DNA of 41,254 nt from a virus (lineage: Duplodnaviria > Caudoviricetes). Shown in pieces: positions 17,037 through 40,261 of this stretch. The stretch spans positions 1 to 41,254 of IMG/VR virus record IMGVR_UViG_3300027863_000071. One strand, written 5' to 3'. Position 1 is the first letter of the stretch, and every line of letters starts with the position of its first letter. The notes below the pieces were generated by a model, which worked only from the letters and a program-made list of their open reading frames with translations, was not told the origin of the DNA and searched no databases. A program made the position numbers and the translations under genes.

Positions 17037-18593
17037 TTACTTAATTCTGCCCGCGGGCTGGACATCCGCCGTAACTTTTTCTATTGCCCACGTCTTACCT
17101 GCTGTTTCATTGTAAAACTTTAAGCTAAAATAACCACCTTTTAATCTTTTCCTTATTCTATATTGACGCCCTACTGTACTAATAGTACCAGTTTCTTGCG
17201 GCTGAGAATTGTCTATTAAATCCTCCCACGCTTCTTCAGCATTATTTGCCCTACGAAGTTCATAATTTACACTGTCTGTATCGGCGAAAGCCCCTCCGGT
17301 TGCCCCGCCTGCCGTCGTTATAGTTATCGAATTTACTCGCCCAGCTTTATCCTCCGTGTCGCCAAGAGCCTGAACCATCCCTACATAAGAATTTATTGGT
17401 CTATTGCCCGTACCAGGCTCATCACTAATAACATTATCCGCTTTTAATGAATCATTAAATTTACGCACAAAGCCATCTTGACAACCTATAAGTAAATCTG
17501 AGTATTCCTCTTCATTTGCTTGATAATTAAATATAGAATAAGCAGATGATGAAATTGGATAAGTCTCAGGGAAAAACCCTTGCGTTCGCAAATCATACCA
17601 GTAATTTGAATTTACGCCGTCTGCGAGCCTCGTTATGCAGATTAAAATACCCAGTCTTTTACGGTCATAGCCCATTATAATCTTATGTGTTGAAGGACTA
17701 ACATTTTCGTCTCTTACAATGTTAGGCAACAATAATCCGGTAATAAGTTCAGGCTTTGTAATCATACCCCCTTCTATTCCGCACGCATATATACCTCCGG
17801 AACCCCAGAAATACAGAGTTCCTTTGCTGTCTATGCACCAAGAATCAGCCCCATATATCCCAACGGTTAAATCAAAAGAATCAATAGTGCCGCCGCTGGC
17901 GGGGTCGCCACGCAAATACCACATACTGGTCGCACATCCAAAAATCAGAATATCATCTTTATACGGTATCAATGCCCTGATAACATCCCCTATTTGACCT
18001 GCATTCGCTTGCTGACCAGCAACGGCAGTCATAGCATCAGTAGCTGAGTAATTCCAATCCCACGGGTTAGCAATACGAGACATATACCATTGATGTGGAT
18101 AAATAGGATTACCCGATAAAACACAACGGCCACGATATAAACAGCCCAAATAAGCCTTTTCTGGCATCTTGCCATAATTATTTTCATCGCCTGTATAAAC
18201 TGTCCATTTATACCAATGTGGTTTATCAGTAACAGCAGTAGGAGTAAACGAACTTCCCGACCCGCTACCATTTACTGTATTAGTAGTATTAAATGCCGTT
18301 GCTCCACCACTGTAAAAAGCAAAACCATACGTATGAGTTTTTGTGCTATCTGTGTAGTCAACTACCATATAAGCATACTTACCACCACCTTGATTTTGTG
18401 TTAAAAGGTCGCCGTTGGCGTGAGGGGTGCCTAACTGAGTGTGAGTAAGTTTAGTATTAGTAAAATCAGCCACGTATAAATTAGCGCCATTAACCACAAA
18501 AACCTTCTGAAAAGCCTCAAATAGTTGTATCTGGTCAGAAGTATTTATCTGGCCACGAGCAGCTACAAGTTCAACCATCGTTCCGCTTGCCAT
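17037..18593 (-). CDS. Tail nozzle / tubular protein B (P22 gp10-like beta-propeller), main body lacking its N-terminus
   Basis: LYRGRCVLSG, WYMSRI, GDVIRALIPYKDDILIFGC, YWYDLRTQGFFP; C-terminal RIRKRLKGGYFSLKF...WAIEKV. Confidence 0.8.
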   Translation of the reverse strand: MASGTMVELVAARGQINTSDQIQLFEAFQKVFVVNGANLYVADFTNTKLTHTQLGTPHANGDLLTQNQGGGKYAYMVVDYTDSTKTHTYGFAFYSGGATAFNTTNTVNGSGSGSSFTPTAVTDKPHWYKWTVYTGDENNYGKMPEKAYLGCLYRGRCVLSGNPIYPHQWYMSRIANPWDWNYSATDAMTAVAGQQANAGQIGDVIRALIPYKDDILIFGCATSMWYLRGDPASGGTIDSFDLTVGIYGADSWCIDSKGTLYFWGSGGIYACGIEGGMITKPELITGLLLPNIVRDENVSPSTHKIIMGYDRKRLGILICITRLADGVNSNYWYDLRTQGFFPETYPISSSAYSIFNYQANEEEYSDLLIGCQDGFVRKFNDSLKADNVISDEPGTGNRPINSYVGMVQALGDTEDKAGRVNSITITTAGGATGGAFADTDSVNYELRRANNAEEAWEDLIDNSQPQETGTISTVGRQYRIRKRLKGGYFSLKFYNETAGKTWAIEKVTADVQPAGRIK

Positions 18594-18595
18594 AA

Positions 18596-19111
18596 TTAAA
18601 TATCCTCATACCAAACTTCATCGTTCGCAACTACTACAAGCCGTTTAATAGCTACTTGCTGAATAACATTTGCGAACGCCGACCCAACTGCATCATATTC
18701 AATAGCAGCCGTACCTTTTGTCGTCAATAACGAACTATAGAGCAATCCAAAAGCGTCCAGAGTAACAGAGGCAGTACCTGAAACACTAAAACCATATGAG
18801 AGTTTGCCCCGAGATGAAAATGTTACATTACACGTACCGGAGGTACGTATAATATCTGTAAATAATTTTCCTTGTGCAGACAATAAGATATCAGAACTGC
18901 CTTTGATGTATAGATAATCTATAAGTAAGTAGCCATACGCAGATAAGACAACTGAAGAGCCGCCTTTGATATACAAATAATCTACTAATAAATATCCAGA
19001 GGCGGACAGAGTAACTCCGGCGCTACCGCTGGTTTCAAATACACCTCCGCTAATGCCCGCCGCACCTATTTCCCATCTATCGACTTGTGAAGCACCTATT
19101 GACCAAGCCAT
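18596..19111 (-). CDS. Repeat linker protein (six 20-21 aa beta repeats) with a C-terminal docking-like motif
   Basis: Repeats such as YLYIKGGSSVVLSAYGYLLID; N-terminal WxIGA x2; C-terminal KRLVVVANDEVWYEDI. Confidence 0.75.
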   Translation of the reverse strand: MAWSIGASQVDRWEIGAAGISGGVFETSGSAGVTLSASGYLLVDYLYIKGGSSVVLSAYGYLLIDYLYIKGSSDILLSAQGKLFTDIIRTSGTCNVTFSSRGKLSYGFSVSGTASVTLDAFGLLYSSLLTTKGTAAIEYDAVGSAFANVIQQVAIKRLVVVANDEVWYEDI

Positions 19112-19114
19112 AAT

Positions 19115-20584
19115 TTACACTTTCGCAGAGGTATATATAGAGGCATCAAGTCCTGCATTTGCAGCAGGACTACCAACCCCTATACTGAAATCACCATTAG
19201 CAGGGTCTGTTAATTGAGGATTACCTATAATTTCATTGCTACCTGCATCTAGTATCTTTGTAGAATTGGTGGTATTATTCCAAACATTATAGTCAGTAAC
19301 TGCATAATAATTGCCAGCAGGCGCTATCCCTGTCGTACAATTTGTAATTATATTATTATAAAGCATAACTGGAGGGGCGGATGAAGTTAAGTTGATACCA
19401 GTAGTGCAATTATAAATAGTATTATTAAAAAGAAAAAGATTATAGTTATTCTGATATATTCCAGTAGTGCAAGTATCTATAATACATCCAGCTACTATTA
19501 TATTAAACTGGTCGCTATAAATACCATATATAGAGTCGTGTATATAACAGTGAAGGAAAATTACTGATGTAGAGCCACTTGCGATATATGCGCCCTGGCC
19601 ACTTACTCCCGTAGCAACCATTTCACAACCTATGCAGTGAGTAGGCCCTTTTGTTATGCTAAGAGCATCTGCAGTGCCAGAAGCCTTAGTATTCTGAAAA
19701 AAGCAATTTATTATACCTATATAAGCGCCGTATATTCCTAGCGCAAAGCTTTGTGAGGTAGTGGTAAATCGAAGATTTTTTATTCTATAACTATTTCCTG
19801 TTATCATAAAACTGGCAGTATTTGTATTTATAGTCGGTCTATCATTGCCGATAGGATTATCACCTCTTGTAGTTTTATATCCCGCTATAGTAATAGGTAC
19901 GCCTGTCCCCCCTGATTTAGCTATACTAACAGCCGTTGCAATAGCGTGCGTACCGGAGGCAATCCACCACGTATTGCCTGCGACGGCGGCCTCCATCATT
20001 ATATCATCAGTAACACCATTTAAAGTTGCTCCAAAAGCGAGGGCGCCTCCGACATAACCTTTGCGGCCAGAACCTGATGCTACTGTAGTATCCACAATAA
20101 CAGTCTGATAATTAGTTGCATCTACTATTTGATACCAGCCCAAATGTGTATTATCAGACGCAAACAAATGTATAAGGTTGCCAATTATTGCGGTATGATT
20201 GCCTTCAGTAGTAAATCCAGAAGAAGATGTAAGCGTGGTCGTATCATTAGTTACTATATCAGTCTGTGTAGAATGCGGCGAATCTTGCTGAGAATAATCT
20301 GTACCTGAAGTCCAAGCTGTAAAAGTTATAGTACTATCACCTGTTCCTGAAACCTTAGTAAGTGTTCCGCTCGACAAAGGGTTGCCCGTACCAGTAGCGG
20401 CAAGCCCTCTCGTAGTCCCTAATGGCAACACCACAGTATAAGTTTGTGAGTTATGGCTATAAACTGCCCCTGCCGACAGTGTTGTATAAGTAGCAGTAAA
20501 AGTATAAAGCTTGCCATAACCACCGCCATTATTTTTGCTGCCTCCAGTTCGTATCTCCCACTGGACATTTGAAGTAAGTGCCAT
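19115..20584 (-). CDS. Right-handed beta-helix (pectate-lyase-like) tailspike / depolymerase candidate
   Basis: IIDTCTTGIY, NNTIYNCTTGI and NNIITNCTTGI coils; DPANGDFSIGVGSPAANAG. Confidence 0.8.
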   Translation of the reverse strand: MALTSNVQWEIRTGGSKNNGGGYGKLYTFTATYTTLSAGAVYSHNSQTYTVVLPLGTTRGLAATGTGNPLSSGTLTKVSGTGDSTITFTAWTSGTDYSQQDSPHSTQTDIVTNDTTTLTSSSGFTTEGNHTAIIGNLIHLFASDNTHLGWYQIVDATNYQTVIVDTTVASGSGRKGYVGGALAFGATLNGVTDDIMMEAAVAGNTWWIASGTHAIATAVSIAKSGGTGVPITIAGYKTTRGDNPIGNDRPTINTNTASFMITGNSYRIKNLRFTTTSQSFALGIYGAYIGIINCFFQNTKASGTADALSITKGPTHCIGCEMVATGVSGQGAYIASGSTSVIFLHCYIHDSIYGIYSDQFNIIVAGCIIDTCTTGIYQNNYNLFLFNNTIYNCTTGINLTSSAPPVMLYNNIITNCTTGIAPAGNYYAVTDYNVWNNTTNSTKILDAGSNEIIGNPQLTDPANGDFSIGVGSPAANAGLDASIYTSAKV

Positions 20585-20605
20585 AAATCACTTCCTTTAT
20601 TAAAT

Positions 20606-21013
20606 TTATGTAGCGGTTAACGTTAAATCGCCAGCCAAGAATTTTACTGTCTGGCCGCTGGCACTGACCGTTACGGGAACGTCTAATGGTATAACGCATA
20701 GCAAATTGCCCTCGCCTGGTGTGCCGCTATCATATAAGGCGGCATATTCTATTGCTTCACCACCATTCCACGCACCAGTTGAAACATCAAATGCCAAATC
20801 AACCTTGTTTGTTATTGAAGCGGGATTAGAACCTGTTGCCGTATTCCACGTATCACTATCGCAAGGGACTTCTGCTCTGGTATAACCATTTTCGGCATCT
20901 ATCTCCGTTCCATTAGAATCTGAACAAAGCGCTAAATACATAGACGCCAACGGAGAAGCTGCCCCTGTAAAACTATTTAAAGCTACTTGTTCACCTTTCG
21001 CTGCGAAAGCCAT
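20606..21013 (-). CDS. Small beta-sandwich tail appendage subunit
   Basis: MYLALC, E...NGYTRAEV, ITNKVDLAF...GAW, ALYDS...GNLL, FLAGDLTLT; AGGAGG RBS. Confidence 0.75.
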   Translation of the reverse strand: MAFAAKGEQVALNSFTGAASPLASMYLALCSDSNGTEIDAENGYTRAEVPCDSDTWNTATGSNPASITNKVDLAFDVSTGAWNGGEAIEYAALYDSGTPGEGNLLCVIPLDVPVTVSASGQTVKFLAGDLTLTAT

Positions 21014-21030
21014 AACGCCTCCTTTTTAAT

Positions 21031-22440
21031 TTAAATACTTTCTATCCATAACTTATTGGCTGCTGCGGCAACCAATCTTCTTACTGTTAGCATATTATTT
21101 ACGCCCGTCCACTCCCAGTCAACTCCTCTGACGCCACCATCAAAGGGGCCAAGACCACTGCCACCTTCCAAAAGAATATAATTAGGGTGAGGCTGTTTAA
21201 GCGACAAAGTAGTAAAGTACCATACATCGCCCTGCGTAGTACCAACATCATTAACGGCATCTACACGCCAGTAATAAGTGCGTGAATATCGTAAAGGGAA
21301 AATATTGTGGAATGGTTTAATACTAACCGTTACATTCGTTAGTTTAGTAGTTATCAATGTTAAGTTACCCTCAGAATCGCCAAAATAAACATTATAATAA
21401 TCAGTATTTCCGCCACTTACCCACGAAAGATTTGTCAAGCCAATCGAAACATTTTCACTACTATATGCGGGCGTAGGCTGCGTCGGCTTACCAGGTAATG
21501 ACGGCGCTTTATATAACTTATATGTAAGCGCAGGATGGTAAAGAACTGGATTAGATAATACTGTGTGGTCGCCATATCTTTCCTGATAAGGCTCACCGCC
21601 AAAAGTTTCAGTAATTTCCTCCAAAGGCAACCACTCACTAGGCGCCCAATAACCGATATAAGTTCGCCCACCTGGTCTTATTAGCATATTTAAATCTAAT
21701 GTAGCAGAATCGCTGACACTAGGATTAACTAAGCTAACTACAATAGCATACGAAGTGTTATTCGCATACAATCGCACTTCAGGGATAGGTATATGTATTT
21801 TCTTGCTTGTAGAAGGTAACAATTCCGCTGATAAAGTTACAGTAGAAAGAGGTGAGCCAACAGGCTCTGAATTTTGGGCTTCATAAACATCAAATCTACA
21901 ATCGCACGTAGCTGAATATGAAATAGTAAGCTCTATAAGTTTTGCTGGCGATTCATAACCTCCTTCTTCAGCTGTTAAAATGTCACACCAAATGGGTCTA
22001 TTAGAATTCATCACAGATGGCGATGTATTAGATAATATCCAATTATTACCATCTTTATAATACCGCGATGATATTAGCAAATTATTATTTGTTGTGTATA
22101 AGTGCTTACAATATCTTACACCCCCCACACCCATATCCACATAAGACGTAATATAATATTTTCGGTGCTGCAATAGTGATATTGGAGGATTAAAAGGAAC
22201 GTTAATCCACGTCCATTGCAAATAGGGTAATGCTGAAGCATCATAATCTGTATAACCTAAATAATCGCCCGAATCATTGATAATACCCACTCGCAATGTT
22301 GTAGATAGATTTTGGGGATAATTTAGATAATCTTCGTCTCTCATACAACAGAGCAGAGAAACAGATTGTATATCAACATTTTCTAGTGGTATGAATTCAC
22401 TAGCTATATCTACCCAAAAATTGTCTTGTCTATAAGCCAT
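21031..22440 (-). CDS. Multi-domain beta protein with a fibronectin-III-like domain and a C-terminal docking-like motif
   Basis: PGKPTQPTP...LSWVSGG...YNVYFG...YYWRVDAVNDVGTTQGDVWYFTT; ends RRLVAAAANKLWIESI. Confidence 0.75.
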   Translation of the reverse strand: MAYRQDNFWVDIASEFIPLENVDIQSVSLLCCMRDEDYLNYPQNLSTTLRVGIINDSGDYLGYTDYDASALPYLQWTWINVPFNPPISLLQHRKYYITSYVDMGVGGVRYCKHLYTTNNNLLISSRYYKDGNNWILSNTSPSVMNSNRPIWCDILTAEEGGYESPAKLIELTISYSATCDCRFDVYEAQNSEPVGSPLSTVTLSAELLPSTSKKIHIPIPEVRLYANNTSYAIVVSLVNPSVSDSATLDLNMLIRPGGRTYIGYWAPSEWLPLEEITETFGGEPYQERYGDHTVLSNPVLYHPALTYKLYKAPSLPGKPTQPTPAYSSENVSIGLTNLSWVSGGNTDYYNVYFGDSEGNLTLITTKLTNVTVSIKPFHNIFPLRYSRTYYWRVDAVNDVGTTQGDVWYFTTLSLKQPHPNYILLEGGSGLGPFDGGVRGVDWEWTGVNNMLTVRRLVAAAANKLWIESI

Positions 22441-22467
22441 AACTACTTACCAAAGATGCAGTTATCA

Positions 22468-23487
22468 CTACGCTTCATAAGGCAACGTATAAAAGTCTCC
22501 ACCATATAATGTACCATCTATTTCCGCACCAGAAGAAAAGAATAATTCCCCGACGGGATTATGCTCTGGTGTAGGAAGCAGATTGATGTGAACGGTTGTG
22601 CCTGGCGTAAGGTAGTGGCCATCATCAGTACTAACAGCATCTACTCGCCAAGACAAAGAAGAGTTTCCCGCAAAACTCATAGGAACAATTATTTGATATT
22701 CTAAGTCCCAGTCATAATTAGGATATTCAATAGCTTCAGTAAATACGAAGTTGTTATTTACATACAATTTCATTTGCGCGTGTCCCCTTTCGGGATTTCC
22801 AAAAGCAAAAACCTTTACTGAATCATAAATAGGTGTATGAAGAGGACAAAATAGAGAGGCTTCTTGAGGATATGCAAATCCCTGTATCTGCGTCAAACCA
22901 GTTGGAACCATATCCTGCAAGTGCCAAGCAGTCCCACCCCAATAATACCATTTACAGTATGAAACTGGATTTAACATTCCTCTAAATACAATAGCAGAGT
23001 AATGATAACGATATGTCGGTGGGTTCGGTGGGTTTTCTATAACTTCCGTAAATCCTAACGCATTCGTGTCAAACTCAACTGCATAAAGTTTATTGCTGCT
23101 ACTCCAACCAGGAGGTTCTGATGTAAATTCGCCATCTGTAAGAGGTATGATAAAATTTGTGTTTATACCTTCATATACAGGGATATTGGCATACACTATA
23201 GACCCTGTCGCTATATCGTCACTTAATCTATTGCCGCTAATATCTGACTCATAAACTTTAACTGATAAAGTCGAATCTGCAAATATTTCATTATCTCCTG
23301 GATATGCTTCTTGTCTGCCTGCGAAAACTTTTATTTGCTTAGTTGTTCCTTTTCTGCCCCTCGATATTGCCTTTTGCGGAGTATAATAATGTATTACTTC
23401 CATCTGGTCTTTATACTTATATAAAGGCACTCCTGTGCTTTCCGAGCCCCAAGCGTCTGCCTTCCATATAGCCCAATAGTTAGCCAT
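22468..23487 (-). CDS. Putative virion adhesin, aromatic-rich beta protein
   Basis: 339 aa; SWRVDAVS resembles the neighbour's Fn3-like motif; lies in the tail cassette. Confidence 0.6.
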   Translation of the reverse strand: MANYWAIWKADAWGSESTGVPLYKYKDQMEVIHYYTPQKAISRGRKGTTKQIKVFAGRQEAYPGDNEIFADSTLSVKVYESDISGNRLSDDIATGSIVYANIPVYEGINTNFIIPLTDGEFTSEPPGWSSSNKLYAVEFDTNALGFTEVIENPPNPPTYRYHYSAIVFRGMLNPVSYCKWYYWGGTAWHLQDMVPTGLTQIQGFAYPQEASLFCPLHTPIYDSVKVFAFGNPERGHAQMKLYVNNNFVFTEAIEYPNYDWDLEYQIIVPMSFAGNSSLSWRVDAVSTDDGHYLTPGTTVHINLLPTPEHNPVGELFFSSGAEIDGTLYGGDFYTLPYEA

Positions 23488-23497
23488 ATTATAGACC

Positions 23498-23722
23498 TCA
23501 GATAATACTACTTACAGAACACATAGCCACTACAGGCTGTTCAATTCCGCCGATTTGCGTTCCCGCACCCCATTTATCAAGGCCAGGGCGCTGGCCAATA
23601 CGAACTCTATTCTCAAGAACATCTCGTGGCCGAACATTATTGATATAAGCAGTAGTAGCGGCCAGTTGTTTATCCATAGGAACGCCTAAAGATTTACCTT
23701 TTACAGGCAATATAATCTCCAT
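23498..23722 (-). CDS. Detached N-terminal segment of the nozzle protein
   Basis: LPVKG...NNVRPRD...RVRIGQRPGLDKW resembles the 'xRPGL' N-terminus of gp10/tubular-B proteins; AGGAGG RBS. Confidence 0.7.
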   Translation of the reverse strand: MEIILPVKGKSLGVPMDKQLAATTAYINNVRPRDVLENRVRIGQRPGLDKWGAGTQIGGIEQPVVAMCSVSSII

Positions 23723-24270: not shown

Positions 24271-25044
24271 TCAAGGTTCCGGTATAATCTGAACATAATT
24301 TTTGTCATAAATTGTTGCGCTTCTAATATAGCCCTCGCCCTTACGAAGGTTCATAGTGCCTAAATTGCCCACCATACCTTGCTTCTTATCCTCTCCAATG
24401 CACTGCTGCAATAGCACTTCAGCTGCCCTGTGATGTATCCCAATAGTTTCATCTTCTTGCAATTCTGCAACGGCCAAAGCGCACTCTAAAATACATTCAG
24501 AAGCCAAGCCATCGCCCACAAAGACATCGTCATCATTTACTGGTGCTGGAGGAATAGAATTGTAAGTATAGTAATAATCAAAATTATTAGAAGGCGTTGG
24601 AAAGAAAATTACTTCATTGTCTGCTTGGCCGGTGATAGGGTCATATTCAGATGTCTTTAACGCAAAATATCTTGGATAACCTGTGCCGGTTGTTTGAGAT
24701 TTTTGAAGATAAATAAACGCCAGCGGTCTCTGAATGGGATTGTATGAAAGAGGTGTTATGTGGGTAAAAGGACAAACTAAAGATGAAAAACCTATTGGTA
24801 ATTTATACACTTCTTGACCAGCAACTATCGAAAGTGTTGTAGTCTTTTGCAAGAAAAACCACCTATATGTTTCTGCGGGATTTTTGCTTAAATCTAACGG
24901 CATTAAAAATTTTCGATAACCCCGTAGCGTTATATCTTTAACCTTTTTTAAGTCGTCGCCTGTAGGTTGACTGCCTAATCCCAAAAACTCAGAAACCTTA
25001 GTCCAGACATCTTTATATGTTAGTTTGAGAGGGCTACTACTCAT
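24271..25044 (-). CDS. Head-tail adaptor (tubular protein A-like)
   Basis: YRWFFLQKTTTL, GQEVYKLPIGF, GYPRYFA, IFFPTP; likely start MSSSPL. Confidence 0.8.
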   Translation of the reverse strand: MSSSPLKLTYKDVWTKVSEFLGLGSQPTGDDLKKVKDITLRGYRKFLMPLDLSKNPAETYRWFFLQKTTTLSIVAGQEVYKLPIGFSSLVCPFTHITPLSYNPIQRPLAFIYLQKSQTTGTGYPRYFALKTSEYDPITGQADNEVIFFPTPSNNFDYYYTYNSIPPAPVNDDDVFVGDGLASECILECALAVAELQEDETIGIHHRAAEVLLQQCIGEDKKQGMVGNLGTMNLRKGEGYIRSATIYDKNYVQIIPEP

Positions 25045-25048
25045 AGCG

Positions 25049-25228
25049 CTAATTTCCTTTACCATCGCCACTTAGCTGTGTCTTTTCAGCATTTTCATAT
25101 GCCTCCAACACCTGGCGAATAAGGGCTATATTGTCTGCTAATACCAAATGCTCCTGCCTCGTCAATCTAACAGAAGCACAAACAGTATTGATATTGCGTA
25201 ATGCTTCTTCTATTTTACTATCCATCAT
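25049..25228 (-). CDS. Hypothetical protein (59 aa; not in ORF track)
   Basis: MMDSKIEEALRNINTVCASVRLTRQEHLVLADNIALIRQVL...; AAGGA RBS. Confidence 0.7.
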   Translation of the reverse strand: MMDSKIEEALRNINTVCASVRLTRQEHLVLADNIALIRQVLEAYENAEKTQLSGDGKGN

Positions 25229-30923: not shown

Positions 30924-32921
30924 CTAATCGAAATTTAACCATATTTTCATTTTATCCTTTTTAGCCAACTGCTCTTGTCTTTGTCGGCGTTTTCGCCATT
31001 CTAACGAACCAACGATATTCGCTTCAAACTTAGCAGCGGCTTTGTATTGGTCGCAAGCAGCAAGGCAACATAGCGCATCTGCCACTACGCGGTCGCCGTG
31101 TGCCGCTTTAGCGCCGCCAGAATCAGACATACAACTGGACAATACTATTCTTCCGCCGTCGAAAATATAATCTTCAGCTTCACGTAATGAATCGCTATCT
31201 GGATTTATGAAAATCTTCTCATTCATTCTCGGTCTAAAGCACGCCGTCATTGCAGCATTATACATAGCAAACAATTGTAGTAAGTTATTAGGATTATTCC
31301 ACCATCCTAAAATCTGTGATTTTTGATGAAAACCACGCTTTTCTACTGATGATTTGCAGATAAATGAATAGCCCAGTTCTCTAATTCTTTTAAGAAATAC
31401 TTGACCTATACCGTTTGCTTCAAAATTAAGCAGCGGTTGCTTCGACATACCTCCTACCCATTTTCCTATTGCAACTACAATTTCTGCAAATTGTTCTGGT
31501 AAAGTATGAGAGTCTGCCCAGCAACCAACTTTTGTTCTCGTATCAACATCGAATATCGAACAAACAGAATTGCTTTGTCCCTGCCCAAGGGAAATATCGC
31601 AGCCTAAAACATAGTTATGATTTTGAACTGGTCTTGCTCCACCCAATTCGCCCCACCATTTTAATCTTCCTCTGCCACCATTAACAAATTTAACATTACT
31701 GATTTTATTATCATAAGAATCAAATAAGATTTCGCCAACATATGAAGGCTTTCTGACATATTGACAAATCATTTGATTGATTGTAGCGGGCGAGAAAACT
31801 CCTTCACTAGCGCCAATCTCATTCATATCAAGGTTTGTAGCAACATCTAAATCAGTTCGCTCGGCTTCTTGCTTATCATACCACGGGCTTCGCCATTTTG
31901 GTTTATCTGGAGTTCCACCATCAGCAATAAAAGATATTTTTAGTTCAGGATGTTTGTAAAGCAGTTCCGTTTCAAGTTCAGAATAAGTTATTTCTTGCCC
32001 TTTGGAATACTTATTAAATACATCGGGGGCTAATCGCCTGTAATAATCAATATCCTCAATTACAATCTTATTCAAATCAGGCGACCAGTATAAACCTTCT
32101 GCCTTAAACGGATGCAACCACCATCCAAGTGCCATTTTTATAACGCCTTTCTGCGACCCCATACGACTGAACGGATGGCTCCGATATTCGCTCGTTCCAA
32201 GAAAAATCCTGCAAGCAGCAGTATCTGTCAAAGCTCTATCCATAGCCTCCGCTTCTGCGTGAGGAACTGCAGGAAATTCATCGCAGAATGCCCACGTGCG
32301 CCTTCCACCTTTTCCTACGCTTTCAACGGTAGCTTCGCCGTCGATAATAGAACCGTTCCAAAGATTTTCTAAGTGACGGTCTGTGCGGGTATATTCAGGT
32401 ATTACCCATTCAGGCAAATGCTGAAGCATAAAATCTAATTTCCAAAATAGTGTATCGGGATTGCCTTTCTTATCAACAAGCTCTTCTTTACGGCTTGTTA
32501 TTAAGCCCTTAATGCGTGGGGTAAATAGCCACAAATTCAGACCACAGCCAAGAATAAGCCACGTTGCGCCTACTTCTCTTGATTTTTTTATCTGAACCTT
32601 GCCGCCATTAAGCATTAAATGTGTAATTTCTTCTATCTTTTCATCCTGCCACGGCCAAGTAATAAACGGCCAAACTCCGTATGGCCGGATATTTGGCTTA
32701 GGTTGCTCCGTCCAGAACATTGTTTTGAACGTAATCTGAGGTTTAAGGCGGCATTTTTCCACAAAATCATTTCGTATCTGTTTATCCGCCTGCGCCAGGA
32801 AGCTGTGCAACGCTATCCGGAACCTCAGATTTTCCTTCGGATTTGTCGGCACTTTGCTCAAGAACATCTCTGGAGAGAGACTCAATAACTTTTCTAATTC
32901 TTTCTGCTGGTTGGCTGTCAT
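30924..32921 (-). CDS. terL: Terminase large subunit
   Basis: PFITWPWQ, KSREVGATW (Walker A), AFCDEF (Walker B), LGCDIS, FEANGIG, HGDRVVADAL. Confidence 0.92.
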   Translation of the reverse strand: MTANQQKELEKLLSLSPEMFLSKVPTNPKENLRFRIALHSFLAQADKQIRNDFVEKCRLKPQITFKTMFWTEQPKPNIRPYGVWPFITWPWQDEKIEEITHLMLNGGKVQIKKSREVGATWLILGCGLNLWLFTPRIKGLITSRKEELVDKKGNPDTLFWKLDFMLQHLPEWVIPEYTRTDRHLENLWNGSIIDGEATVESVGKGGRRTWAFCDEFPAVPHAEAEAMDRALTDTAACRIFLGTSEYRSHPFSRMGSQKGVIKMALGWWLHPFKAEGLYWSPDLNKIVIEDIDYYRRLAPDVFNKYSKGQEITYSELETELLYKHPELKISFIADGGTPDKPKWRSPWYDKQEAERTDLDVATNLDMNEIGASEGVFSPATINQMICQYVRKPSYVGEILFDSYDNKISNVKFVNGGRGRLKWWGELGGARPVQNHNYVLGCDISLGQGQSNSVCSIFDVDTRTKVGCWADSHTLPEQFAEIVVAIGKWVGGMSKQPLLNFEANGIGQVFLKRIRELGYSFICKSSVEKRGFHQKSQILGWWNNPNNLLQLFAMYNAAMTACFRPRMNEKIFINPDSDSLREAEDYIFDGGRIVLSSCMSDSGGAKAAHGDRVVADALCCLAACDQYKAAAKFEANIVGSLEWRKRRQRQEQLAKKDKMKIWLNFD

Positions 32922-33576
32922 ATCCTTCGTCTTTTTTAAGGAAAAGCTCTTTTCTAAATTCGTTAGGAAATTTGTTACATAGCAAGAATGTAAATAATGT
33001 AGCGTTAGCTGGCTGAAATTTTCTTGTTATTTCTTTTCTTATCTCTATCCATTTATCTTCTTCGCAAGTAGCCTCAGAATTTCTCTGATATACTGTTTTA
33101 ACTTCATCGTAATAAAAACCAACAGATTGAGCCACTAATGAACGGAGAAGCTTGCCGTGCAAAAACTCCATCGCCTCTTGATATGCCTTGCCAAAAAGCT
33201 GTTCATCTGATTTAGTTATTCGATGAGAATCAAAAATAGTTTTAACAACTCTTTCGCACAGCCACGGAATACTGCTATATATATCACCTTCTTCAATAGT
33301 GGCATACACTCTTCTTTTGCTATCTACAGGAGGCTTAGTATCTGCCTGCTTTGATTCAACTTTTTCATCTTCTTTTTCAGGAAGTGAACGTCTGTATTTA
33401 TCATACTCTTTCCTATATATACTCTGACAATTTTTACACCAAGAATGAAGACTATCTGTGTTGTGGGGGTTTCGCGAAAATTCTTCCACAGGTTTGCACT
33501 GCTTACATTTTGCACAAATTTTCGTCTTTATTTCAGTAAATCTTTTAGTTATTTCTATTTTTTCTGGTTTCCGCAT
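32782..33576 (-). CDS. terS: Terminase small subunit-like protein with an N-terminal Zn finger
   Basis: CAKCKQCKPVEEF...SWCKNC; SVGFYYDEVK...ITRKFQPANATLFTFLLCNKFPNEFR; directly upstream of terL. Confidence 0.7.
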   Translation of the reverse strand: MRKPEKIEITKRFTEIKTKICAKCKQCKPVEEFSRNPHNTDSLHSWCKNCQSIYRKEYDKYRRSLPEKEDEKVESKQADTKPPVDSKRRVYATIEEGDIYSSIPWLCERVVKTIFDSHRITKSDEQLFGKAYQEAMEFLHGKLLRSLVAQSVGFYYDEVKTVYQRNSEATCEEDKWIEIRKEITRKFQPANATLFTFLLCNKFPNEFRKELFLKKDEGYDSQPAERIRKVIESLSRDVLEQSADKSEGKSEVPDSVAQLPGAGG

Positions 33577-33929: not shown

Positions 33930-34826
33930 TCATAAAGCCGCAGTCAAAATTTCTGTTCCGTCCAAATTCAACGTAGGTGTCAATTGAAAATTCTCTGTGC
34001 CTCTACCATTATTCCAAAGTATTGATATTTCTTCATCAGTAAGAGTTCTTTTAAAAATCATCATATCATCAAAGGCTCGGTCAAGTGGCAAATAAAGAGG
34101 AATCAATCCCCATTTGCCAATAAATATTTCAATAACAGGCTCTTCAGGGTCAGTTTCGATAGGATTAGTAAATCCCGCTCCCTCAAATTTACCATCAATA
34201 TATAGCTTCATTTGTCCGATATCGCCGCTATACATCATTACAAGACAATGCCACGGATGAGGAATTCTATTTTCAAAAGCCATTTGACTTCTTACAATTA
34301 TACCTTGATTACTTCCAATAATAGCTCTATTTTCTGTATCATTTCCAATGAAATAATACTGTATGTTGCCTTCTCGTCCTGTTGCATCTCCTACGTAAAA
34401 CAAATATGCATTGGCAGTCACAATAACATTTTTCCAAAAAACTACTGTCCAATCTTGTCCGGCTGTAAATAATCTCGCAATTTCGTTATTATAAGGATGA
34501 CCTAAATAAAACCCTTCTTCTTCATCGAAATTGAAAAAATTCATCTTCGTTGTATCATTATATCTACACGCTATACCTGTAGTATTTGAATGTAATAACC
34601 TTGTCGGGAAGGGATTTCCATCTATATCATAAGCGTATATAATATTATTATTGCCCGAACTATCTGACACGATATTAGTGTCGGAGTTATCGTCGCATTT
34701 CCAATAAACTAAGCACGACTGCTCCATTGATGGCACAGATGTGTCTTGCCCCCCACCACCATTGCCGAAAAAATATACAACAGTTTTGACTGCTCGCTTA
34801 ACGAAATCATTTAACCATTTAATCAT
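33930..34826 (-). CDS. LamG / concanavalin-A-like lectin-domain protein
   Basis: VYWKCDD, WTVVFW, WHCLVMMY, KLYIDG, DDMMIFKRTLTDEEISILWNNG. Confidence 0.85.
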   Translation of the reverse strand: MIKWLNDFVKRAVKTVVYFFGNGGGGQDTSVPSMEQSCLVYWKCDDNSDTNIVSDSSGNNNIIYAYDIDGNPFPTRLLHSNTTGIACRYNDTTKMNFFNFDEEEGFYLGHPYNNEIARLFTAGQDWTVVFWKNVIVTANAYLFYVGDATGREGNIQYYFIGNDTENRAIIGSNQGIIVRSQMAFENRIPHPWHCLVMMYSGDIGQMKLYIDGKFEGAGFTNPIETDPEEPVIEIFIGKWGLIPLYLPLDRAFDDMMIFKRTLTDEEISILWNNGRGTENFQLTPTLNLDGTEILTAAL

Positions 34827-39187: not shown

Positions 39188-40261
39188 ATGCCGGAAATAC
39201 TAAATCAAATAATTCAGGGTGATGCGCTTACGGTATTAAAGACCTTACCTGATGAGATATTTGATTGCTGTATTACCAGCCCACCATATTGGAGGTTACG
39301 TAATTACGGCATTGAAGGTCAATTAGGCTTGGAAAAAACCCCTGAAGAATATGTTGAAAAACTGGTAGCGGTGTTCCGAGAAGTTAAGCGTTGCCTAAAA
39401 AAAACCGGAACTTGTTGGCTAAATTTAGGTGATAATTATGCTGGAAGCGGCAAAGGACCAGATGGTAAACGTAGTAAAGAAGCTAATAAAGTATCTTGTG
39501 CGGCACCACCATTTAAATCTAACATTTTAAAACCCAAAAACCTTTGCGGTATCCCGTGGCGTGTAGCCTTTGCCCTGCAAAAAGATGGGTGGTATTTACG
39601 ACAAGACATTATATGGTCAAAACCAAACCCGATGCCAGAAAGAGTTACTGATAGGTGTACGAAATCTCACGAATATATTTTCTTGTTAACTAAATCGGCC
39701 AAATATTACTTTGATAACGAAGCGATTAAAGAAAAAGCTAACTATGATGGACGTAAAGACACAATAATGAAAGCATATTTTAATGGCAGTCCAAATCCAA
39801 TAGGTAATAGACATCGTGAAAGATGGCCAAATAAAGATAAAAATAACATACCTATGCGGAATAAACGCAGTGTCTGGACTGTAACCACCGTAGGTGACGG
39901 CAACGGCATACATTTCGCCACTTTCCCCGAAGATTTAGTTACCCCTATGGTTTTAGCGGGCTGTCCTAAAGGCGGGCTAATATTAGACCCCTTTGCCGGA
40001 AGCGGTACGACCGGATATGTCGCCGCTAAACTGCAAAGGAACTATTGCCTAATAGAACTGAATCCGAAATACATCAACGAAATAGCTATCTTGCGAATCA
40101 ACGAAGCCGAAACCGGAGTAACAATACGTGAGCAGAAAAACGGACAAAAAAGTTTATTCAAAATGTTGAATTGTTCTAGCGTTATCAACAGTCTTGCGGC
40201 AATCGCGGAAAATCGCAGAGCAAAAGACAAGGAAACTGAAAATGAAACTGTATTTAATTAA
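39188..40261 (+). CDS. DNA methyltransferase, N4-C/N6-A beta class
   Basis: ITSPPY (motif IV) precedes HFATFP and LDPFAGSGTTG (motif I). Confidence 0.95.
   Translation: MPEILNQIIQGDALTVLKTLPDEIFDCCITSPPYWRLRNYGIEGQLGLEKTPEEYVEKLVAVFREVKRCLKKTGTCWLNLGDNYAGSGKGPDGKRSKEANKVSCAAPPFKSNILKPKNLCGIPWRVAFALQKDGWYLRQDIIWSKPNPMPERVTDRCTKSHEYIFLLTKSAKYYFDNEAIKEKANYDGRKDTIMKAYFNGSPNPIGNRHRERWPNKDKNNIPMRNKRSVWTVTTVGDGNGIHFATFPEDLVTPMVLAGCPKGGLILDPFAGSGTTGYVAAKLQRNYCLIELNPKYINEIAILRINEAETGVTIREQKNGQKSLFKMLNCSSVINSLAAIAENRRAKDKETENETVFN

Follow-up and report, generated by a model that had tools for sequence, protein, structure and literature searches.

The 41,254-nucleotide viral sequence analyzed here (the window; Duplodnaviria, Caudoviricetes; IMG/VR record IMGVR_UViG_3300027863_000071, positions 1 to 41,254) encodes what appears to be a podophage-type tail nozzle in separate pieces, and two of the genes lying between those pieces end in a shared 16-residue motif, referred to below as the tag. 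The open reading frames (ORFs) described in the original prediction, which was made from the letters of the window alone, are all present on the minus strand, including five genes (339, 469, 135, 489, and 171 amino acids [aa]) between a stand-alone nozzle N terminus (N74) and the nozzle body. The features are as follows.

24271..25071, minus strand: tail adaptor gene, upstream of N74 and given for context (PF24175 SU10_adaptor, E=9.2e-09).
23498..23722, minus strand: N74, stand-alone nozzle N terminus, 74 aa, 4.9 kb upstream of the body.
22468..23487, minus strand: untagged 339-aa protein; among named Atlas clusters the closest, and no more than a lead, is DUF4082 (0.87).
21031..22440, minus strand: cargo A, 469 aa, with variable N-terminal domains, an Fn3-like domain, and a C-terminal tag.
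21031..21081, minus strand: distal-class tag, 16 aa plus stop, Ala at the turn, 2.4 kb from the body.
20606..21013, minus strand: Gp80-like chain-fiber subunit, 135 aa (PF23140, E=1.1e-13).
19115..20584, minus strand: likely β-helix appendage, 489 aa, untagged (DUF5123, E=0.0027, below cut-off).
18596..19111, minus strand: cargo B, 171 aa, with rope-like repeats and a C-terminal tag, as read from its sequence.
18596..18646, minus strand: proximal tag, 16 aa plus stop, located with a hidden Markov model (HMM) of the motif.
17037..18593, minus strand: nozzle body, 518 aa, without N terminus and without hairpin (the "bare" state).

The minus strand also encodes terminase, capsid-like, adaptor, and tail genes, and the nozzle gene sits downstream of the adaptor (PF24175) and capsid-like genes, as in podophages; the capsid-like protein matches NF033394 at E=2.4e-16, below the cut-off of that family. 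The only profile match of the body is phrog_376 "tail protein" (E=2.4e-4), cargo A has two weak matches (fn3, E=0.07; phrog_31, E=0.035), and N74 is left unnamed by Pfam, PHROGs, and NCBIfam scans. Residues ∼300–449 of cargo A are common to the distal cargos of many loci. The 339-aa protein carries no tag by the motif HMM and has no homolog in the fetched loci.

Profiles of the body and of N74 retrieved nothing relevant from the PDB sequences, only chance antibody matches. The fold was examined in P0010, a body homolog that retains the motif at its N terminus and is 57% identical to the window's body; its AlphaFold2 (AF2) model has a mean predicted local distance difference test score (pLDDT) of 79.7. 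The Foldseek ranking of this model is headed by the Pa223 nozzle (E=4e-12), followed by the Pan3, SU10, VP1, P22, Pam1, and GP4 nozzles, and it aligns to the VP1 nozzle with a Z score of 18.8 and a root-mean-square deviation of 4.0 over 396 residues. The β-propeller and C-terminal platform of a podophage nozzle are present in the model. The body contains this C-terminal platform and aligns to the C termini of solved nozzles, and the missing parts are N-terminal. Residues 8–11 of P0010 align with residues 65–74 of the VP1, Pa223, SU10, and P22 nozzles, which hold 64–73 residues ahead of the part matched by tag and body; the missing stretch is therefore about the size of N74. Unlike in podophage nozzles, this N-terminal segment is not in the same chain but has a 74-aa gene of its own. 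In the model of the fused homolog, the motif appears as two strands (residues 15–19 and 22–26), with a pLDDT there of about 40–50. Modeled alone, the window's own body, which had been predicted to be incomplete, shows no strand in residues 1–22 and a low-confidence, partly helical last blade, and thus is not a complete propeller in the model.

Unsplit relatives bear out the earlier assignment of N74 as a nozzle N terminus. Longer N74 homologs were not found by a single-sequence search and were found by a profile search, which returned 1072 proteins at E up to 0.001; among the matches listed, all 37 N74-initial proteins of at least 480 aa also carry the body. In four of these 37 (P0198, P0266, P0174, and P0121), a tag scoring at least 8 bits separates N74 from the body. 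The order is directly colinear in P0198 and P0266, with tags of 21.6 and 18.4 bits, and in P0174 and P0121 an insertion lies ahead of the tag. The motif thus falls in the gap where the original prediction had placed it, and from this order a single ancestral nozzle contained N74, tag, and body one after the other. Alignment by HHalign to the compact unsplit nozzle protein of locus L163 is significant for N74 (85.6%) and the body (99.5%) and not for the tag. N74 and body were found in one ORF in no viral locus of our set (153 viral loci and the window, partly redundant; 2.6 million aa of six-frame ORFs). By features, N74 also matches (0.96) an ESM Atlas cluster of which 12% is labeled PF25675 Phage_nozzle.

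Two further groups of N74-like proteins were seen. ESM Atlas clusters matched by N74 include 66–97 aa proteins partly labeled Phage_nozzle or crAss muzzle, which may be stand-alone nozzle N termini in other phage groups or else fragments. P0122–P0125, P0128, and other N74-profile matches of 285–430 aa start with N74 and continue into other domains, the five that were checked having no nozzle body; these may represent the opposite split, in which cargo is fused behind N74.

Both tags of the window lie flush with a TAA stop and share 7 of 16 residues, as first noted. They had been described as a motif of cargo C termini; that motif is real, with the correction that it is itself a nozzle segment, found at the N terminus of 87 of 120 body homologs (a set that contains the window's own, motif-less body). 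An HMM trained only on the N-terminal motifs of these 87 fused homologs scores the two window copies at 35.2 and 16.6 bits. The best off-target match in 1.15 million aa of six-frame ORFs reaches 8.0 bits, and the cut-off applied later, 8.1 bits, was placed just over it. The window's own record holds only the two copies.

Across the locus set there are 270 tag matches in 154 partly redundant sequences: 164 are C-terminal in separate ORFs, 105 lie inside body ORFs, and 1 is cut by the end of its locus. Every C-terminal tag with both anchors in view (157/157) lies between N74 and the body, and the tagged ORFs end 1–2 residues past a conserved Glu in 106 of the 114 counted. At least two tag copies are present in 90 of 102 loci. 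When a DNA pattern of tag plus stop was scanned over IMG/VR, all 20 matching stretches were in split-nozzle loci, although the pattern was derived from these same loci and most of the matches are contigs already in the set. The sequences upstream of the tag are diverse: the 126 cargos form 31 groups when 70% mutual coverage is required and 12 when any shared match suffices, and Pfam searches of 50 of 113 cargo regions gave matches in 13 (LamG, DUF4082, fn3, propeller repeats, lectin-like). The expected pattern of a C-terminal tag behind varied domains, confined to split-nozzle loci, is therefore confirmed.

The DNA of the window's two tag copies is 47% identical over 45 nt. Distal tags show 55% amino acid identity, compared with 18% for the 15 residues just upstream, and 28% identity at fourfold third positions. 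Conservation of the tag is seen at the protein level and not in its DNA. These comparisons bear on a scheme in which the tags are DNA recombination sites and programmed cassette switching brings the cargos, one by one, into frame with the body. Such switching is hardly credible: two tags from the same locus resemble each other in DNA no more than tags from separate loci do (57% versus 55%, with 33% in both cases at fourfold third positions), and contigs from three sequencing runs contain no tag joints, which is weak evidence. One contig, from a run that may be that of the source sample, spans the stop after the distal tag; the stop after the proximal tag is covered and not bridged. What speaks for mobility is that L018, L020, L073, and L154 have near-identical bodies and differ in cassette order and in fused or bare state, pointing to recent reshuffling. 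The cassettes have probably been reshuffled on occasion in the course of evolution; for a programmed switch the data give no support.

A feature absent from the original prediction, and new here, is a conserved start codon inside fused nozzle genes. In 102 non-redundant loci, four of them anchored by hand, with near-duplicates and the unsplit L163 excluded, we recorded whether an in-frame ATG or GTG is among the five codons that follow the Glu of the tag. Where a fused tag coexists with at least one separate tagged gene, the start is present in 67 of 67 loci; where the fused tag is the only one, it is present in 0 of 12. The 67 starts comprise 51 GTG and 16 ATG and no other Val codon, whereas elsewhere in the bodies GTG accounts for 379 of 2181 Val codons. 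Their median pairing energy with the anti-Shine-Dalgarno (anti-SD) sequence is −6.1, against −1.55 at 1046 other in-frame ATG or GTG codons. The remaining state, that of the window, is the bare body: all 23 such loci have two or three tagged genes, all their bodies start with ATG, and the body frames relative to the tag are mixed (16, 5, and 2). In the window, the Glu-Asp codons of the proximal tag form the ribosome-binding site of the body gene (GAGGA at 18607–18603; duplex energy −6.1).

These states are scattered over the body tree, with at least 6 forced changes for the single-tag state and at least 16 for the bare state, and independent pairs on the tree agree on start versus separate tagged gene in 6 of 6 cases (p=0.031). 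Under fixed rules, held-out loci gave an internal start in 34 of 34 with a separate tagged gene and in 0 of 3 without; this set began with 82 loci, from which 21 were dropped (duplicates or bodies at least 95% identical to earlier ones), 20 were set aside as bare or cut, and 4 for want of upstream sequence. Two of the three negatives read GAG GAT TTA GAT ACT, in which the SD-like context is retained and the start lost. As read from these sequences, the internal start would yield motif-less subunits exactly when other proteins can supply the motif.

The same data address two other accounts of the tag. It could be a relic of duplication or recombination at the 5′ end of the nozzle gene, kept as the ribosome-binding site of the next gene, with the internal start a relic of fusion. 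The end of the motif does often encode GAGGA and adjoin the next start, and changes between the bare and fused states are frequent on the tree. We nevertheless regard this account as improbable: conservation extends over the whole 15-residue hairpin and not to its synonymous sites, GTG predominates among fused starts when all bare starts in the main set are ATG (23/23), no other Val codon occurs, and the single-tag lineage just described keeps GAGGAT with ACT at the would-be start. Very improbable, in our estimate, is a covalent joining of cargo tag and body through recoding (readthrough, frameshift, or ribosome hopping) or protein splicing. Such joining might lead one to expect a proximal tagged gene directly next to the body and the occurrence of fused versions, and both are seen; the 23 bare loci, however, have mixed frames, mostly TAA stops (18), and an ATG for each body, the distal tags lie kilobases away, and no intein-like family appears among the Pfam matches of these proteins.

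The split, tagged nozzle is a real and conserved system. On the strength of sequence comparison and modeling, the 16-residue predicted hairpin at the C termini of appendage proteins likely docks non-covalently in a gap of a propeller blade and so anchors appendages to the tail. That the nozzle ring is in addition a programmable six-socket hub, so that one virion carries mixed, tunable appendages on a symmetry-broken hexamer, is a proposal toward which we lean modestly. The nozzle would be encoded as three pieces, with the tag as the middle one. N74 would provide strands of the platform, together with the strand that closes the propeller and the first one of the tagged blade; the tag would give the two middle strands of this outer blade and the body its last. 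Fused genes would make two forms, self-plugged and open-socket, in a ratio set by the weak GTG inside the nozzle gene. A bare or internally started body would present an open slot, to be filled by the C-terminal hairpin of a cargo, and the six sockets of the hexamer would be shared among competing tags of unrelated proteins. In 57 of 64 viral loci counted in which a fused tag coexists with further tags, nothing but a short leader precedes the tag of the fused form, and such a form may act as a blank plug that limits the number of sockets taking cargo. As the window's body is bare, cargo would be needed in all six of its sockets and would be either the Fn3-type arm of 469 aa or the rope of 171 aa; the latter would carry Gp80-like dimers, with the 489-aa β-helix at its tip. 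The arrangement could have arisen by insertion of a domain into the loop preceding the hairpin, followed by a stop after N74; the unit of cargo and tag would then have been duplicated and a new start gained behind the tag.

Several observations weigh against this interpretation. Gly occupies the turn of the tag in 76 of 94 proximal copies and in 2 of 91 distal copies, a difference that one equivalent socket does not explain. The tag region is modeled at low pLDDT in the fused homolog, 33 of the 37 unsplit proteins lack a tag at 8 bits or more, HHalign fails to place the tag on the L163 protein, and the untagged 339-aa gene is unexplained by the scheme. Concerning the internal start, 9 of the 12 single-tag loci have an ATG, GTG, or TTG one codon past the five-codon window, so a weak later start is possible there; the six loci that were measured have weak SD pairing (−2.1 to −4.0). 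The two held-out negatives quoted above are near-identical to each other. Finally, L023 and L089 were exceptions in a first round and moved to the multi-tag class after a second HMM detected their tags; the counts before this reclassification were 61/61 versus 2/9.

The two turn classes suggest a variant in which docking is the same and the tags are not interchangeable, either because one class is used per virion or batch, or because the classes bind two sites (alternating subunits or a second surface). This variant overlaps with the preferred reading on docking and differs from it only on equivalence. The classes are persistent, Gly being found in 19 of 23 proximal tags even when these are separate (the window's proximal tag, with Ala, is unlike most), and it is the proximal tag that carries the rope and Gp80 cargo. 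We nonetheless consider the variant unlikely, if the most serious of those discussed: the strand list of the fused model suggests, in our reading, one incomplete N-terminal blade, a single HMM built from nozzle N termini matches both classes, and an internal start is present whenever a distal tag exists, as expected if the same slot is needed.

The cargos differ in part from those first proposed. The Fn3-type 469-aa protein is tagged as predicted, whereas the β-helix-like 489-aa protein is not, and the second tagged protein is the rope-like one of 171 aa. A Gp80-like gene (PF23140) is found in 23 loci, and in 22 of these the proximal cargo exceeds 60 aa and ends in small-residue, rope-like repeats, as judged by eye. 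By analogy with phage A1002 (PMC13730344), we infer that the 171-aa protein serves as a rope. In all 6 loci inspected, the gene after the 489-aa homolog opens with a pair of IG[AV]-type repeats, which suggests that the β-helix is probably attached indirectly, docking on the N-terminal IGAxQ repeats of the rope and not by a tag of its own. Pairs of a β-helix-like gene followed by a gene with IG[AV] and rope repeats occur in the window (19115–20584/18596–19111) and in L040, L047, L063, L122, and L158, and in L040 and L047 the pair lies outside the nozzle interval. From their sequences, β-helix and IG[AV] repeats are possibly a second peptide-docking pair; a pattern search of the fetched loci found no unsplit β-helix-plus-IGA form.

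The Fn3-like domain of the distal cargo, uncut in the window's 469-aa protein, is elsewhere cut between two genes at about the same point, as read by eye, between N74 and the body. This is seen in L007, L010, L020, L021, L024, L029, L051, L054, L061, L073, L092 (twice), L097, L101, L115, L154, and L155. The untagged first gene ends past a Trp-containing strand and the next starts with a Tyr-x-Val-Tyr-Phe-type strand; the second gene is tagged itself or has a tagged partner after an insertion. Splitting and complementation may recur at the next level of the appendages, both in the divided Fn3 domains and in the repeats at the rope tip, on which the β-helix would be caught.

Scoring of candidates yielded 879 body homologs, and a match was found in none of 50,697 deposited phage records. 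Relatives occur on genome contigs labeled Planctomycetota, including an Anaerohalosphaeraceae contig of 169 kb that has one tag, in fused form, and the compact unsplit nozzle gene of L163 is on a contig labeled Tepidisphaeraceae; others lie on shorter contigs in bins of other phyla, possibly mis-binned. The hosts of the family probably include Phycisphaerae. The best-matching sequencing runs are hot-spring metagenomes.

Some other genes were noted in passing. L013, L038, L054, and L150 have ORFs with Cys-rich, HNH-like sequence (a label given by eye) inserted between the nozzle pieces. In the window, an ORF at 32782–33576 overlaps the start of the terminase large subunit and combines an endonuclease VII/HNH-like N terminus with a weak match to the terminase small subunit, and 33930–34826 and 39188–40261 encode a Laminin G/concanavalin-like protein and an N6/N4 DNA methyltransferase.

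One large uncultured family thus presents a near-complete series of states: unsplit, inserted, split, and multi-tag. The usual view of nozzles is that of single-chain homo-hexamers, with fibers bound to a dock on their surface. In the system described here, two paired strands of the propeller core appear to have been turned into a portable attachment tag, and the conserved internal start would open a socket only when another gene needs one. If this is true, any domain could be recruited by the gain of ∼50 bp, a testable route by which phages may add and reshuffle host-binding modules. The 16-residue tag and its acceptor are a candidate display tool.

Podophage nozzles, as described in the available sections of the papers on T7 gp12 (PMC6702177), SU10 (PMC9509320), and A1002 (PMC13730344), are hexamers under the adaptor ring, with a seven-bladed propeller, velcro closure, and a platform formed by N- and C-terminal strands (PMC6702177, PMC9509320). 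In SU10, blades 1–3 face away from the tail axis and blade 1 bears the fiber dock (PMC9509320). The system described here shares with the canonical nozzles (T7 gp12, SU10, P22 gp10, VP1, Pa223, and GP4) the propeller fold and a gene downstream of the adaptor. In contrast, those nozzles are single polypeptides whose fibers bind a dock loop or domain and supply no propeller strands.

The nearest precedent is the split nozzle of the Pseudomonas podophage A1002, which consists of gp42 (nozzle-base) and gp39 (nozzle-rope), two fixed partners, each hexameric, of which the second supplies the C-terminal propeller and platform (residues 469–620) (PMC13730344, in the part available). The rope of A1002 carries Gp80-like dimers, and the chain fibers of A1002 and GP4 are described there (PMC13730344). 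As in A1002, the propeller here is predicted to be completed by strands of a second polypeptide, and a rope that would carry Gp80-like dimers may be attached via the complementing piece. The cuts, however, are N-terminal here, there are three pieces, and the donor is only ∼16 residues; several donor genes are present per genome instead of one fixed partner, and an internal start is conserved, whereas the available A1002 text reports neither multiple donors nor an internal start.

Branched receptor-binding proteins (RBPs) of Klebsiella phages KP32, K11, and KP34 share a conserved RBP2 docking peptide (PMC13352976, excerpts). Here too, a short conserved peptide is predicted to recruit interchangeable receptor-binding modules to the virion; in the excerpts, however, the RBP2 peptide binds the branching domain of RBP1, not the nozzle, and is no missing part of the acceptor fold. 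The KP32-type docking peptide is N-terminal, unlike the tag, which is C-terminal and homologous to a segment of the nozzle itself. Internal translation starts that give hetero-oligomers of long and short forms are known from phage endolysins (PMC12203907, excerpts). An in-frame internal start is likewise predicted here to yield two forms of one protein, although an endolysin is a lysis enzyme and not a virion hub, and the excerpts describe no socket for other proteins. A literature search that left most subscription journals and supplements uncovered gave no description of the present arrangement and A1002 as the sole split nozzle. In its split site, number of pieces, multiple donors, and internal start, the system differs from both the A1002 and the KP32 types and is a member of neither.

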